The notes under the pieces were generated by a model. That model had not been told where the DNA came from and searched no databases. It was given only the letters and a program-made list of their open reading frames with translations. From sequence record NC_049462.1: DNA of 64,000 bases; one strand, 5' to 3'. Source of the stretch: Klebsiella phage Magnus. Made by a program: the position numbers and the translations under genes. Below, in pieces: positions 32,294-58,882 of the stretch. The stretch's first letter is position 1. The number at the start of each line of letters is the position of its first letter.

Positions 32294-32322
32294 TTTTAAA
32301 TCAGATTCCGTTCAATAGACGA

Positions 32323-32345
32323 AGGGGCTGCTATAATAGCAGCCT
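32323..32345 (+). terminator. Hairpin ggctgcTATAATagcagcc + T-run (terminator with embedded -10; TTCAAT 16 nt upstream)
   Basis: Stem ggctgct/agcagcc, loop ATAAT, then tctttt. Confidence 0.5.
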
Positions 32346-32367
32346 CTTTTGTTTATTGGGGCTTTGT

Positions 32368-33030
32368 ATGTCTTATACGATCAAAGGTCTGTTGAAAAGA
32401 CCTGTCCATTTGTTCCATAAACCGCCTGCCGTTGTCGGGGAATACCCGGCAAGAGGAGAGCTTTATTATGTCAAAGGCTCCAACGGTAGTGGCAAGTCTA
32501 CCGTTCCGTCCTGGATGGCGGAGAATGATCCTCAGGCATATGTCGTGACCCACAATGGTAAGGTGATGCTGACCGTTTGCCCATCATTTAATATCATCTG
32601 TGTTGGTAAGTACGACAAATCGAAATCCAAAGGGGTTGACTCTCTAAAAGACACAGAACAGATGCTATTCGCTGTGTCTATCACCGAGCAACCTGAATAC
32701 ATCGGGTATGATGTGATCTTTGAAGGTATTATCCCTGCTACTTTGCTCAATACGTGGATTGAACGTCTAAACCGCCCGACCCGCCGCCTTGTGGTTCTGT
32801 TCTTGGATACCCCCAAGGAAGTATGCCTGGCACGTGTGAGTTCTCGCAATGGTGGTGAAGACTTCAAACACGAACTCGTCCTGGAGAAATGGAAGCGTGT
32901 CAACTCTCACCGAGAGCGGCATAAAGAGTTGTTCCCTAACATTCCTGCGGGTATGATGAAGTCTAATGGTCTGACCGTTGATCAGGCCGTATCTGCGTTT
33001 CTCAATCGTGATTTTGGGAGTATTGATTGA
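32368..33030 (+). CDS. Polynucleotide-kinase-like P-loop kinase; candidate 5-hydroxymethyl-pyrimidine DNA/nucleotide kinase of a base-modification pathway
   Basis: Walker A YVKGSNGSGKSTV (compare T4 Pnk GCPGSGKST); stop overlaps start of TS-like gene (TGATG); first gene of the coupled operon. Confidence 0.55.
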   Translation: MSYTIKGLLKRPVHLFHKPPAVVGEYPARGELYYVKGSNGSGKSTVPSWMAENDPQAYVVTHNGKVMLTVCPSFNIICVGKYDKSKSKGVDSLKDTEQMLFAVSITEQPEYIGYDVIFEGIIPATLLNTWIERLNRPTRRLVVLFLDTPKEVCLARVSSRNGGEDFKHELVLEKWKRVNSHRERHKELFPNIPAGMMKSNGLTVDQAVSAFLNRDFGSID

Positions 33031-34073
33031 TGGAAATTTTTGCTTTAAACAACAACGACATGCTGAAGAAAGCTGTCCTGGCTATTCGTGAACATGGGAT
33101 TGAGTCTGATCCCGGTAATGCGGAGATTAATACTGATGGCACCCGGTTTCTTGATGGCGTGACCATAACCGTCTCGGACATCCGTGACCGCTGGCTTTCC
33201 GTTGAAGGTCGCAATTCTTCTGCGCTGGCTGCTATTGGCGAGACCTTCTGGGTTCTGTCAGGCCGCAATGACATCCGTTTCCTTTCCCGAGTACTCCCCC
33301 GCGCGGCCAACTTCTCTGACGATGGTGTAACCTGGCGCGGCGCGTATGGCCCACGCCTGTACAATCACGGGCAGCTGGATAGCGTTATCAGCCGTCTACG
33401 CAAGAATCCAAATACCCGCCAGGCGTATCTGACAATCTACGACCCGGCGCTGGACTCTGATGAAGGTTTGGCTGCTCATAATGAAACAGGCGAAGCCAAG
33501 ACCAAGGACATGATCTGTAATCTGGCTCTTTTGTTCTCTATTACAAACGGCTGTCTGAACATGACTGTCATCAACCGTAGCCAGGATGTTCTTTGGGGAA
33601 TGTCTTCGATTAACTTCATTGAATTCTCTATTCTTCAAGAAGTGATCGCTAATGTTTTGGGCGTTAATGTCGGCCAGTACAAGTTGTTCTCCAACAATCT
33701 TCATTACTACAACAATGAAGTAAGTCGTAAACAGCTTGGTGGTATCACCTGGAAAACACAAACTTCTACTGGAGGCCTGGTGTGTTCTTTGCTGTCTTTC
33801 AATCGTGACAAAGTAAAGAACCAGAACGACATCCGCAACCTGTTCCTGGGCGTCCTACACCATTGCGATATCGGAAGCGACTTTGGTGAAGTCCGGGAGC
33901 ATCTTTCTCAGTTTGATGCTGACAAAGGGCTTATGCTAGATATGGCTTATTGTCTATGGTGTCGCCTAAACGATTCGAAGATCGATAAACGCAGCATTGC
34001 TGATGACGGTTTACGGACAGCATTAATGCATTCTTCGGTTGATCGGAAATATATTTGGGGACAAGGCGAATGA
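33030..34073 (+). CDS. Thymidylate synthase-family pyrimidine hydroxymethylase (dUMP/dCMP hydroxymethylase-like), 348 aa
   Basis: Aligns to the ThyA core: KNPNTRQAYLTIYDP (TS: NDPDSRRIIVSAWN), catalytic Cys in DMICNLALLFSI (TS: PPCHALFQFY), NRSQDVLWGMSSINFIEF (TS: QRSCDVFLGLPFNIASY), NLHYY (TS: DTHLY with Asp to Asn change); Asn retained at the uracil-specifying position. Confidence 0.7.
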   Translation: MEIFALNNNDMLKKAVLAIREHGIESDPGNAEINTDGTRFLDGVTITVSDIRDRWLSVEGRNSSALAAIGETFWVLSGRNDIRFLSRVLPRAANFSDDGVTWRGAYGPRLYNHGQLDSVISRLRKNPNTRQAYLTIYDPALDSDEGLAAHNETGEAKTKDMICNLALLFSITNGCLNMTVINRSQDVLWGMSSINFIEFSILQEVIANVLGVNVGQYKLFSNNLHYYNNEVSRKQLGGITWKTQTSTGGLVCSLLSFNRDKVKNQNDIRNLFLGVLHHCDIGSDFGEVREHLSQFDADKGLMLDMAYCLWCRLNDSKIDKRSIADDGLRTALMHSSVDRKYIWGQGE

Positions 34074-34636
34074 TGTATCCTAATCTTGAATTTTTCACGG
34101 GGCGCAAGCGCTCCGGTAAGGACTTCTGCCTGGAGTCCATTATTGAAGCAGACCGGGGTATCCGTGTCGTTCATCGTCTTTCTTTCTCTGATGAGTTGCG
34201 CCGGGTGGCCAATTACATTTACCCTTGGCTCCCGGTTGACGTAGATGATTCCATCAAGGATCTGCCGTTCTCACATCCGGATAACGTACACAACCTGTCG
34301 CCAAGGCAGATCTGGCTCCATCTGGGCAACGATAAGGGTGGTTTGCGCTATGTACAACCCGATCTGTTCCTGGCGTTCTTTAAACGCTTCCAGTTGCCTC
34401 TCGTGGAGGCTAACCCTGGTGTGCACTATATCGTGAGCGACCTGCGTACTCCGCAGGAATATAATTGGGCGCTGAGTACTAAATGTCCCATCACGCGCAT
34501 TTCAAAGCCCAATCGTTCTGGTATAGTAGAGGATGACGTTGAGGCCTATATCGACCAAATGGTTGTTGATTATGATTATGTCAACAACTTTGAAGGTCGT
34601 AACAATTTTGTTGAATTCTACAGGAACAGAAAATGA
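34070..34636 (+). CDS. gp1: Deoxynucleoside monophosphate kinase (T4 gp1-like)
   Basis: FFTGRKRSGKDFCLESIIE (T4 gp1: FLSGVKRSGKDTTADFIMS); overlaps neighbours at both ends. Confidence 0.7.
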   Translation: MMYPNLEFFTGRKRSGKDFCLESIIEADRGIRVVHRLSFSDELRRVANYIYPWLPVDVDDSIKDLPFSHPDNVHNLSPRQIWLHLGNDKGGLRYVQPDLFLAFFKRFQLPLVEANPGVHYIVSDLRTPQEYNWALSTKCPITRISKPNRSGIVEDDVEAYIDQMVVDYDYVNNFEGRNNFVEFYRNRK

Positions 34637-35187
34637 TAACAGCAGATCATATTAAAAGTCTGCTCGAACTCCAAAAGGCCACTAACGTGGCCTACTTCGG
34701 GGAAGAGTGGAAAAACGTATGGAGCCAAAACGCAGTCGTCAACTCTATTTATCGTGAATGGGCAGAATTCCTCGATGAAACGACTGCTGATTGGAAGGTT
34801 TACGGTAATGACATCGGGTTTCACCATACGAACGCAGTTTATGAACTGGTCGACGTGGTTCATTTCATGTTGTGCTTCGTTCTATTGGACCGCACCAAAG
34901 GCGAGATAGAAGAAGAATTTGAAATTCTTGGTAGCCGCGAATTCACTCCATTTGCTTTGGGTGCTGTTGGACATCGAGGTGTGACGTACCGCCTTGGGCA
35001 GTTCATGGATGACCCTTGTGTTGAGACTCTCATGTTTTTCCTGTCGTTTGCGTGTTCTTACATGGAGATCGACATTGAGACCTACATGCTGGCGCACAAA
35101 CGCAAAAATGATCGTAATCGGCTGCGCGCTGCAGGCGGCGCTGACTACGACAAATCCAAAGAAATCCCTCTGACCCTGGAGTTCTAA
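34633..35187 (+). CDS. MazG-like all-alpha NTP pyrophosphohydrolase (candidate dUTP/dTTP- or dCTP-excluding enzyme)
   Basis: MazG core: ...EWAEFLDETTADWKVYG...AVYELVDVVHFMLCFVLL (E..E..ExxD metal-binding helices). Confidence 0.55.
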   Translation: MITADHIKSLLELQKATNVAYFGEEWKNVWSQNAVVNSIYREWAEFLDETTADWKVYGNDIGFHHTNAVYELVDVVHFMLCFVLLDRTKGEIEEEFEILGSREFTPFALGAVGHRGVTYRLGQFMDDPCVETLMFFLSFACSYMEIDIETYMLAHKRKNDRNRLRAAGGADYDKSKEIPLTLEF

Positions 35188-35705
35188 TGTTTACGATTAA
35201 CATCTCCATCTCGGCCGATAACCTTGAGTCATCGGTCAGCAATTTCATTGAGCACATGAAGCCCTTGGGACATGTGATACTCAATTGCACATTAGACGTT
35301 GAAGGCGGGGTTGCGGAGATGTTATTTACGACACCCTCTCCAACAGACGCATTCGTCTTAATTGAGCGCTGGGCATCGGAGGACATTCCTGTTCCAGCGC
35401 CGTTGCAGGATATCTATTTCAGTGAGACGATTTATTCACTCCATACCATGCCCAAAGATGTTAGCCAGGCTGATATTGTTCGTCTGATTAATCATAACAT
35501 GAACTTTGGGTGTATCGTTCGGCGTGATAACTATCGTTTACGCAATCATTTCCTGTATGATAACCAGAACAAAGTGGATGAAGATTCATTATTATCCATC
35601 AAATCGATGCAGGAAGCGATTAATATTTTGTCTAAGAAGGTTCTGGGTGCAGAATTATTAACCACAATTAACAAACAAGAGGAAGTAAAATGGCCAGTTC
35701 ATTAA
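35187..35705 (+). CDS. Hypothetical protein (member of modification/recombination operon)
   Basis: TAATG overlap upstream, 16-nt overlap with uvsX. Confidence 0.45.
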   Translation: MFTINISISADNLESSVSNFIEHMKPLGHVILNCTLDVEGGVAEMLFTTPSPTDAFVLIERWASEDIPVPAPLQDIYFSETIYSLHTMPKDVSQADIVRLINHNMNFGCIVRRDNYRLRNHFLYDNQNKVDEDSLLSIKSMQEAINILSKKVLGAELLTTINKQEEVKWPVH

Positions 35706-36775
35706 TGGATCGCATGTTGAAAGTTGCTAAGAAACATGACGATCAGGCTTCGGTATTGTCTCAGTCAGACGCGCTGGACCCGAAAATTATCTGCTCGACT
35801 GGTATTCCCCTTATTGATATCGCCTGGTCCGGGCGTGTTGATGGCGGTCTGATCTCTGGTATCAAAATGATGGTCGGTGATTCTCGTACATTCAAAACGA
35901 TGTTCGGCCTGGTTGACGTCAAAGCGTACATGGATAAATTCCCCGACGCGATCTGTGTATTCGCCGATTCCGAAAAGGGTGCCAACGCAGACTACTGGAC
36001 ATCCATGGGCATTGACATGGATCGTGTTCTGTATGTCCCGATCGATAACGTTGAACAGACCAAGATCCGTCTGTTGCAGATTCTTCAGGAAGTGAAGAAA
36101 GGCGATAAAGTAATCGTGTTCATCGACTCTATCAGCCAGTTACCTTCCACCAAAGAGGTAGAAGACGCCATCGCGGGCAAAGATACCCAGGACATGACCC
36201 GCGCCCGCGCCCTCAACAGCTTCTGGCGCGTCATTACACCTGAGATCAACAGCAAAGAGCTGGTGTTGGTCTGGATCAACTCGTATTATGATGAAATTGG
36301 CAACCAATATGCTGAGCCTAACATCAAAGGCGGAAAGCAGGGATTCCTATCATCTAACCTGATTTGGTTCATCACCCGTTCCCAGGTAAAAGAAGACAAA
36401 GACCTGCTGGGATGGAACTTCAACATCGGCATCATGAAAGGTCGCCATGTTAAAGAGAAAGCCAAACTCCCTGTCACGGTTCTGTATGATGGTGGTATTG
36501 ATCGTTGGAGCGGCATGCTGGAAATTTCTCGGGCGCTTGGCTATGTCGATATGCCGACTTCTGGCTGGTATGTCCGGACAGCCAAAGGTGGATTTGATCC
36601 GGAAAAAGAGAAGAAATATCAGAAGCGTCAAATGGATGATGACTTTTGGTATCCGCTTCTGGAAAACCCGGACTTCGCCGATGACGTTAAAAAGATGTTC
36701 GGCGTTTCCAACGGTACTGTTATGCCTGCGAACATGCTGGAGCAGATGGACCATGTTATCAACACCAGTGAATAA
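35690..36775 (+). CDS. uvsX: UvsX recombinase (RecA/Rad51 family)
   Basis: Walker A-like GDSRTFKT, Walker B VIVFIDSIS, overall collinearity and length (361 aa) with T4 UvsX; GAGGAAG RBS. Confidence 0.85.
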   Translation: MASSLMDRMLKVAKKHDDQASVLSQSDALDPKIICSTGIPLIDIAWSGRVDGGLISGIKMMVGDSRTFKTMFGLVDVKAYMDKFPDAICVFADSEKGANADYWTSMGIDMDRVLYVPIDNVEQTKIRLLQILQEVKKGDKVIVFIDSISQLPSTKEVEDAIAGKDTQDMTRARALNSFWRVITPEINSKELVLVWINSYYDEIGNQYAEPNIKGGKQGFLSSNLIWFITRSQVKEDKDLLGWNFNIGIMKGRHVKEKAKLPVTVLYDGGIDRWSGMLEISRALGYVDMPTSGWYVRTAKGGFDPEKEKKYQKRQMDDDFWYPLLENPDFADDVKKMFGVSNGTVMPANMLEQMDHVINTSE

Positions 36776-37082
36776 CAATGGAGGGGGAGTCACCTCCCCC
36801 GTTAATTACGAACTCATCGACCCCGGTGAAGGCCAAATATCCATCATCCACATTTTGGAGGGCCAATTCCGTGGTGTCAAATTCCGTATTGGGAAAGTAT
36901 CCTGGGAATGGTCTGATGACGCACCCCGGCTTATTTTCACCACGGATATTTTGAAGAAACCTTGGCGTCTTTTCTTTAATGATTTGAAAAATAACGACTT
37001 GTTCACTGAAGTGTCAGGCCGTATCTTATTAGACTTAATGCAGAAGAACGCTCAGGAATACAACAAAATTTTGGTGGGGTAG
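36753..37082 (+). CDS. Small hypothetical protein between uvsX and gp41 (position of T4 gene 40)
   Basis: In-frame ATG at 36753 overlapping the uvsX 3' end; well-formed 109-aa reading frame to 37082; start uncertain (a GC hairpin ggagggggagtcacctccccc lies inside). Confidence 0.35.
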   Translation: MLSTPVNNNGGGVTSPVNYELIDPGEGQISIIHILEGQFRGVKFRIGKVSWEWSDDAPRLIFTTDILKKPWRLFFNDLKNNDLFTEVSGRILLDLMQKNAQEYNKILVG

Positions 37083-50142: not shown

Positions 50143-50655
50143 TTATTTGTCGGGGTTTACGCAAAAGGGAGTTGTGGTCAGCTCGCCTTTATCATTAAAA
50201 CTATATTTCAGAATGGCAAATTGGTCAACCATACGATAGACTTCAATGCCGGCATTCATCATTTCTACGATACCAGTGGTGATCCTGTACGGTTCACAGT
50301 AGATCACTTTATCGACCTTGCCGCTGGCAATAATACGTTTGGTGCACTCAGGGCAAGGACTGTGAGTGACGAACATAACCAGGCCACAACAATCTGCCGC
50401 ATGTTGAGGTAAACGGTTCAGAGCATTTTCTTCGGCGTGAATAACACCGTCAGATACCAGCTGGCCGTCTACTTCTATTTCGCACACATTAGGAGCGCCG
50501 GGTGCAGTACCGTTCCAGCCAATAGCCAACGGCTGATCAACCCGAGGATCTACGATAACACAACCAACCTGGAGACGGCGGGCATAACTGGTTTTGCCAT
50601 ATGCCTGGGCTGCTCTCATATGGGCAAACATCATGCGCGGCTTAATCATGGACAT
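50143..50655 (-). CDS. cd: dCMP deaminase (T4 Cd-like)
   Basis: Zinc motifs HAEENAL and SPCPEC; 170 aa. Confidence 0.8.
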   Translation of the reverse strand: MSMIKPRMMFAHMRAAQAYGKTSYARRLQVGCVIVDPRVDQPLAIGWNGTAPGAPNVCEIEVDGQLVSDGVIHAEENALNRLPQHAADCCGLVMFVTHSPCPECTKRIIASGKVDKVIYCEPYRITTGIVEMMNAGIEVYRMVDQFAILKYSFNDKGELTTTPFCVNPDK

Positions 50656-51444: not shown

Positions 51445-51812
51445 AATATTCTCGCTCTTTCAAGGATGATTTCAACTTCACCCCAATCCACGAAGGGGCG
51501 CTTAGACATTGGGTCATAACTCAGAGGACAACCAAGAGCGGCATCGTCAATATACAATTGCGCATATGCTTTTGGTGAATCTGTCCATTCATGCTGTGTC
51601 GGATTCTTGTTGATACCATACAGCGGGATATCAAATGACTGGAACCAATCAACCGCTTCTTCAAGTTGTTTCCCGCTGCGCATGGTGAACAGAATCAGAA
51701 GATGATTTTTATCCACCAGCTTTTTTAGAACCTCTACAGCACCAATATGGCGTCCGATGAGAGGATATTCATGGGTAACACATGTCCCATCAAAATCGAT
51801 ACCGATTATCAT
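51441..51812 (-). CDS. Small HAD-superfamily phosphatase-like protein
   Basis: Motif I IGIDFDGTCV (DxDGT), later YIDDAALG (DD motif). Confidence 0.5.
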   Translation of the reverse strand: MIIGIDFDGTCVTHEYPLIGRHIGAVEVLKKLVDKNHLLILFTMRSGKQLEEAVDWFQSFDIPLYGINKNPTQHEWTDSPKAYAQLYIDDAALGCPLSYDPMSKRPFVDWGEVEIILERARIL

Positions 51813-51875
51813 GATTTATCTCTTAGATTATGGATTAGCTTCAATAATACGTCATTTCGTATATAGAAAAGCCCC

Positions 51876-58255: not shown

Positions 58256-58882
58256 TTATAGACCAAATTTGCCCCGCCACTTTTCGACTTTGTGATCAAA
58301 TGCGTGCTCAACTTTTATTCTAATCGATGACGGTTCTGCACAATGATAATACGTTCTTCCTTCATCAGTCCCATATTGAGGGGCGCAACCGTATGACAAT
58401 GCCAATTGAGCTGTGTATCTGATTAAAGTGCTCACCAGGAAGTTTAAATTATCGGTAGATCTTTGTGGCTGGTTTAGCAATCTGGTGATACGCCCTTTCA
58501 TATGATGGATCATAGCTAAATTCTTTTCTGGCCCTGTGGTGGTATCACAGAAAAGGTGGTCTTCAAGGGAATATTGGCGGAAATCAGAATATCCTTGCGC
58601 CGATGCCATTTGTGTAATAATTGAATCAATAATTTCATCTTTCGTCATATTACCATGGATTTGTGCATCTTTGTAATCGCAGACATACAAAAGATCAACT
58701 GCTGAGATAATCACGTCAGCTATTTCTCCATTGAGTGGTTCTGAAGCTGCGATGCCGTGGTAAACATCGGAAAGTTCACATACTTCTTCCACCAGTTTAC
58801 AGAAGACGAAAAATGGAGAACGATCTGGATTGACCGCAGTACATTCATATGACGTATTGACGATATTACGCAGAAATTTCAT
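58256..58882 (-). CDS. Second MazG-like NTP pyrophosphohydrolase
   Basis: LVEEVCELSDVYHG...EIADVIISAVDLLYVC typical MazG EExxE...ExxD helices. Confidence 0.55.
   Translation of the reverse strand: MKFLRNIVNTSYECTAVNPDRSPFFVFCKLVEEVCELSDVYHGIAASEPLNGEIADVIISAVDLLYVCDYKDAQIHGNMTKDEIIDSIITQMASAQGYSDFRQYSLEDHLFCDTTTGPEKNLAMIHHMKGRITRLLNQPQRSTDNLNFLVSTLIRYTAQLALSYGCAPQYGTDEGRTYYHCAEPSSIRIKVEHAFDHKVEKWRGKFGL

Follow-up and report, generated by a model that had tools for sequence, protein, structure and literature searches.

A probable thymidine hypermodification operon in Klebsiella phage Magnus, orthologous to that of Salmonella phage ViI

The closest described relative of the locus considered here, a block of five genes at positions 32368-35705 in a stretch of DNA from Klebsiella phage Magnus, is the thymidine hypermodification operon of phage ViI, a Kuttervirus with a Salmonella host. 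In ViI-like phages a 5-hydroxymethyl-deoxyuridine (5-hmdU) DNA kinase (5-HMUDK) adjoins a dUMP hydroxymethyltransferase, and the modified base 5-(2-aminoethoxy)methyl-deoxyuridine (5-NeOmdU) has been reconstituted from ViI gp67, gp160, gp226, gp243 and gp247 (Lee et al., 2018; PMC5889632). Both gp67, acting in vitro, and gp243 phosphorylate 5-hmdU in DNA, gp247 is a serine:DNA transferase and gp226 is a decarboxylase (Lee et al., 2021; PMC8989533). 5-NeOmdU has been reported in the DNA of ViI and CBA120, and a review describes the modification genes as conserved throughout the Ackermannviridae (PMC11721090). Within the genus Taipeivirus, to which Magnus belongs, phage phiHS2 is reported to have a homolog of each ViI modification protein, and 5-NeOmdU was found in it by high-performance liquid chromatography with tandem mass spectrometry (HPLC-MS/MS), amounting to ~16% of deoxythymidine (dT) by HPLC-MS (bioRxiv 10.64898/2026.05.19.726188), which is lower than the ~40% of ViI. 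phiHS2 is reported as a separate species, with ~80% total average nucleotide identity (tANI) to the Klebsiella Taipeiviruses.

The window that we analysed is 64,000 nt of one strand of sequence record NC_049462.1, and all coordinates refer to it unless they are assigned to another phage. We conclude that the block is very probably the Taipeivirus ortholog of the ViI orf67-orf62 operon in the 5-NeOmdU pathway, and the evidence supports the view that it covers the pre-replicative half of that pathway together with the first post-replicative step. The direct evidence obtained here consists of homology, synteny, catalytic residues and fold, while experiments published elsewhere have shown that ViI gp67 acts as a kinase, that the ViI transferase and decarboxylase are active, and that the DNA of ViI and of phiHS2 contains 5-NeOmdU. 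An earlier note on this DNA, written from its letters and open reading frames (ORFs), had read the block as a candidate module for thymidine or pyrimidine hypermodification, and every functional assignment in that reading held, with the refinements given below.

Layout of the operon and its likeness to ViI

Gene order and orientation are the same in Magnus and ViI: 5-HMUDK, a thymidylate synthase (TS)-family hydroxymethylase, the deoxynucleoside monophosphate (dNMP) kinase dnk, a dUTPase-like protein, an ACT-like protein, uvsX, a small ORF and gp41. At the amino acid level, genes 1 to 5 of the block and the adjoining uvsX are respectively 79.5% (over 220 of 220 residues), 86.7%, 74%, 62%, 41% and 69% identical to ViI orf67, orf66, orf65, orf63, orf62 and uvsX, which makes gene 5 the most diverged member of the block. 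The two phages differ in genus and host, ViI being a Kuttervirus of Salmonella and Magnus a Taipeivirus of Klebsiella. The window shares ~98.8% identity with Klebsiella phage UPM 2146, of whose record it spans the last 1.4 kb and then, interrupted by several indels, the first 67 kb, and over a stretch of 25 kb its identity to phage Menlow is 98.5%; the source phage is, as are both of these, a Taipeivirus (Ackermannviridae).

All five ORFs are intact, lie on the + strand and start with ATG. From gene 1 to gene 5 the junctions read TGATG (1 nt of overlap), ATGA (4 nt), ATGA (4 nt) and TAATG (1 nt); gene 5 then shares 16 nt with uvsX, whose own end shares 23 nt with the small ORF that follows. 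This agrees with the coupled five-gene run into uvsX that had been proposed from the letters. In the UPM 2146 annotation 34% of same-strand junctions overlap, and the run of six overlapping junctions is the longest within the first 50 kb, where ~0.1 such runs would be expected. The same overlapping junctions are found in ViI. The 40 nt that precede the start of the TS-like gene match ViI at 38 of 40 positions, and those before the start of the ACT-like gene at 35 of 40, against a nucleotide identity of 52-78% for the six genes overall, and both stretches contain GGGAG/GGAG motifs of the Shine-Dalgarno type. Because of the overlaps and the conserved junctions, we suggest that translation of the operon could be coupled.

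Enzymes of the block and the predicted pathway

Gene 1 (32368-33030, + strand, 220 aa) encodes a predicted 5-HMUDK. It has the Walker A motif GSNGSGKST and matches the complete model of Pfam PF18748, HMUDK_HMUD1 (positions 1-196 of 196), with E=8.1e-106. Sequence comparison thus supports its assignment as the ortholog of the biochemically characterised ViI gp67 and places it firmly among the 5-hmdU DNA kinases, in line with the kinase that had been proposed for this position. The label "Pnk-like" that went with the proposal fits less well. The protein is a P-loop kinase, but its family is PF18748; among Pnk-type families in Pfam only AAA_33 was matched, at 22 bits against a cut-off of 27, and a single-sequence search of the PDB returned no kinase at E<0.01. 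We regard it by sequence as a P-loop kinase of a family of its own, resembling Pnk at the level of the P-loop only. The label "terminase small subunit" that PHROG (phrog_800) and RefSeq give to gene 1 was considered and rejected as a misannotation of this PF18748 kinase. In UPM 2146 a separate gene at 114819-115505 is annotated as the small terminase and adjoins the large terminase. The labels "terminase small subunit" and "thymidylate synthase" are spread through dozens of Ackermannviridae records.

Gene 2 (33030-34073, + strand) encodes a TS-family protein of 347 aa, predicted to be a dUMP 5-hydroxymethyltransferase. Its match to Pfam Thymidylat_synt (E=1.7e-14) is confined to residues 65-232 and to profile positions 52-216 of 266, and against the NCBIfam ThyA equivalogs it scores at best 56 bits, with a cut-off of 327. 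The best sequence match in the PDB is MilA, a CMP hydroxymethylase from mildiomycin biosynthesis (PDB 5B6D, 5JNH), with E=5e-18, compared with 2e-7 for the best TS (HMMER). RefSeq/PHROG-type public labels call gene 2 "thymidylate synthase", which is misleading. In Escherichia coli ThyA, a protein of 264 aa, the catalytic cysteine is C146, the uracil-binding asparagine is N177 and the phosphate-binding pair is R126/R127. HMMER alignments to PDB chains place the catalytic cysteine of gene 2 at C163 and align N195 with the uracil-specifying asparagine of TS, where the CMP-specific MilA has an aspartate. Both residues had been read correctly in the earlier note, as had the length of some 80 residues beyond ThyA and an asparagine in place of the ThyA aspartate of the DTHLY motif, which is seen here as SNNLHYY for the TS sequence GDVHIY. 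The note had also reported an arginine-glutamine pair in place of two arginines, and this substitution is real (TRQ, R130-Q131, for SRR) but lies in the middle of the protein and not at the N-terminus. In an alignment of 36 homologs C163, N195, D186, R183, H225 and Y227 are invariant, as are R130-Q131 and NNLHYY.

A structural model of gene 2 carries the comparison further. The AlphaFold model (mean pLDDT 92.7) superposes on MilA over its full length with a TMq of 0.72, and on TS over the core only with a TMq of ~0.52. Residues 235-347 form a helical region that is common to MilA and absent from TS, and both gene 2 and MilA are longer than ThyA. Given the full-length superposition on MilA and the core-only superposition on TS, we suggest that gene 2 owes its 80 extra residues to a helical C-terminal region that the hydroxymethylase also has, and that this region takes the place of the C-terminus of TS, the segment that in TS closes over the folate. 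The likeness to MilA has its bounds, as the two proteins share ~20% identity and MilA acts on a cytosine ribonucleotide, with aspartate at the base-specifying position. The model and the alignments together support a uracil-type pocket in a MilA-like hydroxymethylase fold.

Gene 3 (34070-34636, + strand, 188 aa) is a predicted dNMP kinase of the T4 gp1 type, with the P-loop GRKRSGKD and a match to phrog_139, "dNMP kinase", at E=2.9e-44. As a single sequence searched against the PDB it did not reach T4 Dnk (1DEK), whereas a profile built from 45 sequences of its family had 1DEK as the top solved structure (E=5.7e-14) with the P-loops aligned (GxKRSGKD), which bears out the gp1-like kinase of the earlier reading. 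Gene 4 (34633-35187, + strand, 184 aa) is predicted to be an all-alpha nucleoside triphosphate (NTP) pyrophosphohydrolase of the dimeric dUTPase family. It scores 29.2 bits against Pfam dUTPase_2 (PF08761; cut-off 22.9), covering 2-158 of 162 profile positions, and matches phrog_173, "nucleoside triphosphate pyrophosphohydrolase", with E=1.9e-41 and the Campylobacter jejuni dUTPase 1W2Y in the PDB with E=0.002. No MazG family was listed for it in Pfam at E<=0.1. The name MazG that had been given to this protein is therefore right as to the all-alpha NTP-pyrophosphatase superfamily, and only at that level, the family that it matches in sequence being the dimeric dUTPases of PF08761.

The window also encodes a putative dCMP deaminase (50143-50655, - strand; Pfam dCMP_cyt_deam_1, E=4.5e-16; phrog_174, E=5.9e-57), 14 kb from the operon and outside the block that had been singled out. 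Orthologs of ViI gp160, gp226, gp243 and gp247 were not found in the window by tblastn with the ViI proteins, in agreement with the earlier remark that the downstream transferases were not in it. In UPM 2146, on the other hand, tblastn finds orthologs of gp247, gp226, gp243 and gp160 that are 85%, 87%, 72% and 72% identical to the ViI proteins. The gp247 ortholog, at 74334-75551 of that record, matches Pfam ADDT (PF18724) with E=1.8e-58 and lies ~7 kb past the window end; the gp243 ortholog matches HMUD2 (PF18747) and the gp160 ortholog HMUDK_hel (PF18723), both above threshold, and the gp226 ortholog scores 25.6 bits against PALP, below the cut-off of 35. The search for partner enzymes beyond the window has thus turned up a transferase, a decarboxylase, a second kinase and an aGPT-Pplase1, all in UPM 2146. 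A third MazG-like gene of UPM 2146 adjoins its aGPT-Pplase1.

Bacillus phages with 5-hydroxymethyluracil (hmU) in their DNA, such as SPO1 and SP8, and phages phiW-14 and SP10 follow the same pre-replicative logic, in which a dCMP deaminase, a dUMP hydroxymethylase, a dNMP kinase and a dUTP/dTTP-degrading enzyme let 5-hmdUTP replace dTTP (PMC8989533). By analogy with that scheme, the dCMP deaminase of Magnus would likely supply dUMP to the hydroxymethylase. The 347-aa enzyme would hydroxymethylate C5 of dUMP, turning dUMP and methylene-tetrahydrofolate into 5-hmdUMP, with Cys163 as the nucleophile and with water, not hydride, resolving the exocyclic methylene. The gp1-type kinase presumably makes 5-hmdUDP from 5-hmdUMP, and a host nucleoside diphosphate kinase would make 5-hmdUTP from it. 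The dUTPase-family enzyme presumably clears dUTP from the pool, and possibly dTTP. The phage polymerase would then put 5-hmdU into DNA, where the product of gene 1 would phosphorylate its 5-hydroxymethyl group to give 5-PmdU, a step supported by the orthology with gp67. Beyond the window, a serine:DNA transferase (aGPT-Pplase2/ADDT) would form O-serinyl-T and a pyridoxal phosphate-dependent decarboxylase would form 5-NeOmdU. For Magnus itself we infer the hydroxymethylase, dNMP kinase and dUTPase-like activities, and any role of the ACT-like protein.

The comparison also has its differences. SPO1-type phages stop at 5-hmdU, whereas the DNA kinase of Magnus would start a further modification, and a dTTPase is only putative here. 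In T4, gene 42 (dCMP hydroxymethylase), gp1 (Dnk) and gp56 (dCTPase-dUTPase) make up the same three-enzyme strategy, in which a hydroxymethylase, a dNMP kinase and an NTP pyrophosphatase work together, and gene 3 of Magnus is a true gp1 homolog. The gene order of T4 is 42-bgt-uvsX-40-41, which the position of the Magnus block next to uvsX and gp41 recalls. T4, however, modifies and glucosylates cytosine, in contrast to the route through uracil/thymine, a DNA kinase and an amino acid transferase that we propose for Magnus.

How far the T4 parallel reaches bears on whether cytosine could be the modified base in Magnus, with gene 2 as a dCMP hydroxymethylase, an alternative that the earlier note had kept beside thymidine. 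The nearest solved structure, MilA, acts on CMP, and the dCMP hydroxymethylase gene of T4 lies near uvsX-40-41. We nevertheless give this explanation almost no weight, because Asn195 is the residue of TS where MilA has aspartate, and is invariant in the family, because the phage has a gene for a dCMP deaminase, an enzyme that yields dUMP, and because the modification measured in relatives is on thymidine; the neighbouring kinase is, moreover, specific to the hmdU pathway. The thymidine half of the alternative is thereby supported and the cytosine half disfavoured. Equally improbable in our judgement is a plain nucleotide-salvage operon, in which the 347-aa enzyme would be an ordinary TS and the kinase a polynucleotide or nucleotide kinase. 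Public annotations do say "thymidylate synthase", and the catalytic Cys, Asn, Arg, His and Tyr of TS are retained in gene 2. Against this stand the ThyA equivalog score of 56 bits with cut-offs of 327, a Pfam TS match that ends at residue 232 before a MilA-like C-terminal third, a kinase with a PF18748 match at E=8e-106 whose ortholog has been shown to act on 5-hmdU DNA, and the modified base itself in relatives.

Somewhat less remote, though still improbable, is that Magnus has the same 5-hmdU module but a final base other than 5-NeOmdU, either another amino acid adduct or unprocessed 5-hmdU or 5-PmdU, with late enzymes that differ or are missing. The late enzymes lie outside the window, thymidine hypermodification pathways are combinatorially diverse (PMC8989533), and the Taipeivirus genomes compared here vary by indels. 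Yet UPM 2146, the closest of the relatives compared, has a transferase and a decarboxylase that match those of ViI at 85% and 87% identity, 5-NeOmdU has been shown directly in a Taipeivirus, and the genes are conserved across the family according to the review (PMC11721090). Several points do count against the 5-NeOmdU pathway as we read it. The late enzymes are not in the window, and their presence in Magnus is extrapolated from a 98.8%-identical relative; most thymidine is unmodified in these phages (~60% in ViI and ~84% in phiHS2); the cited ViI literature treats the ViI-type TS homolog as a dUMP hydroxymethylase without a reported assay; for the dUTPase-like enzyme the presumed substrates are deduced from its sequence family; and what ties gene 5 to base modification is its conserved position only. 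Orthology with the ViI operon remains, by a wide measure of probability, our explanation of the block.

The fifth gene, the upstream hairpin and the neighbourhood

Gene 5 (35187-35705, + strand, 172 aa) had been left as a protein without an assignment, but its family is known: it matches Pfam PF24021 (ACT_phage) with E=1.1e-80, and PF24021 was found in 16 of the 16 homologs retrieved, the two of these with source names being Klebsiella phage proteins. The model has a ferredoxin/ACT-like N-terminal domain, with a pLDDT of ~88 at residues 1-90, and a helical C-terminal part of low confidence. With Foldseek the model matched only generic folds of the ferredoxin-like, ACT and PII types, all of them above E=0.001 (best E=7e-3), and a function can therefore not be assigned; a single-sequence search of the PDB gave nothing useful. 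The protein is 36-45% identical across the more distant members and its body diverges rapidly, whereas the last ~30 residues are nearly invariant (AINILSKKVLGxELLTTINKQEEVKWPVH). A nucleotide-level signal for uvsX was considered as the cause of this invariance and rejected. The synonymous sites, that is the third codon positions, are not conserved, which places the constraint at the level of the peptide, and a tail that binds a partner would be one example of what the pattern suggests.

A terminator-like hairpin (32313-32358, + strand) lies in the 74-nt gap that precedes the operon, its core GGGGCTGCTATAATAGCAGCC at 32324-32344 being followed by a T-run, and its 3′ side reaches the ribosome-binding region of the kinase gene. 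It was found with 13 pairs in a terminator scan and can form a 21-bp stem with a TAA loop, containing TATAAT; the minimum free energy of the RNA is -31.5 kcal/mol (z=-6.4). The hairpin occurs once in the window and is conserved in ViI, where it is almost identical while the flanking coding DNA is ~75% identical. From its sequence and position it may serve either to terminate the gene upstream or to regulate the modification operon. A scan for sigma-70 promoters gave 13 sites compared with 11.3 in shuffled sequence, and since such sites are no commoner than in shuffled sequence we claim no promoter for the operon. We have considered the speculative idea that the ACT-like protein and the hairpin are regulatory parts of the hypermodification programme, which we hold to be rather unlikely. 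On that idea the ACT-like protein might sense a small molecule or bind a partner and so set the fraction of modified thymidine (~16% in phiHS2 and ~40% in ViI), and expression of the operon might be gated by the hairpin, acting as an RNA switch or attenuator. Neither role is described in the cited hypermodification literature.

Downstream of the block, uvsX (35690-36775, + strand; Pfam RecA and T4_UVSX_C; phrog_97, E=9e-95) encodes the UvsX recombinase and is a neighbour, not a part of the modification chemistry. It is followed, just before a gp41-type helicase, by a small conserved ORF of 109 aa (36753-37082, phrog_3998), in the place that gene 40 has in the T4 order uvsX-40-41. Elsewhere in the window, a second NTP-pyrophosphatase-like gene (58256-58882, - strand; phrog_1247 "MazG-like", no Pfam match) sits in a part of the window whose sequence departs from that of UPM 2146. 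The two also differ by indels at ~5.8-6.1, 7.1-8.6, 13.3-13.7 and 23.5-24.1 kb of the window, and homing endonucleases are annotated in UPM 2146 at 13.3-15.7 kb. At the window junction ~51809-51817 a UPM 2146 segment of ~1.9 kb (53.5-55.4 kb) is missing, which carries a gene for a putative Ser/Thr phosphatase and another annotated as "QueC-like". The latter was considered as a hint at a second modification, but the segment that bears it is not part of the window.

Consequences for Taipeiviruses

The system is already known, as ViI gp67 and the adjacent "dU hmt" were described in 2018 (Lee et al.; PMC5889632) and again in the 2021 paper of Lee et al. (PMC8989533). As a discovery the locus carries little weight, since the ViI literature already covers the pathway with its genes and product, and a Taipeivirus has provided the confirmation. 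What the locus does show is that the public names "terminase small subunit" for the kinase and "thymidylate synthase" for the hydroxymethylase mislead. For the biology of the genus, it means that the Taipeiviruses that are therapeutic candidates against Klebsiella almost certainly carry hypermodified thymidine, which has consequences for restriction digestion, for sequencing chemistry and for how susceptible these phages are to the defences of the host.

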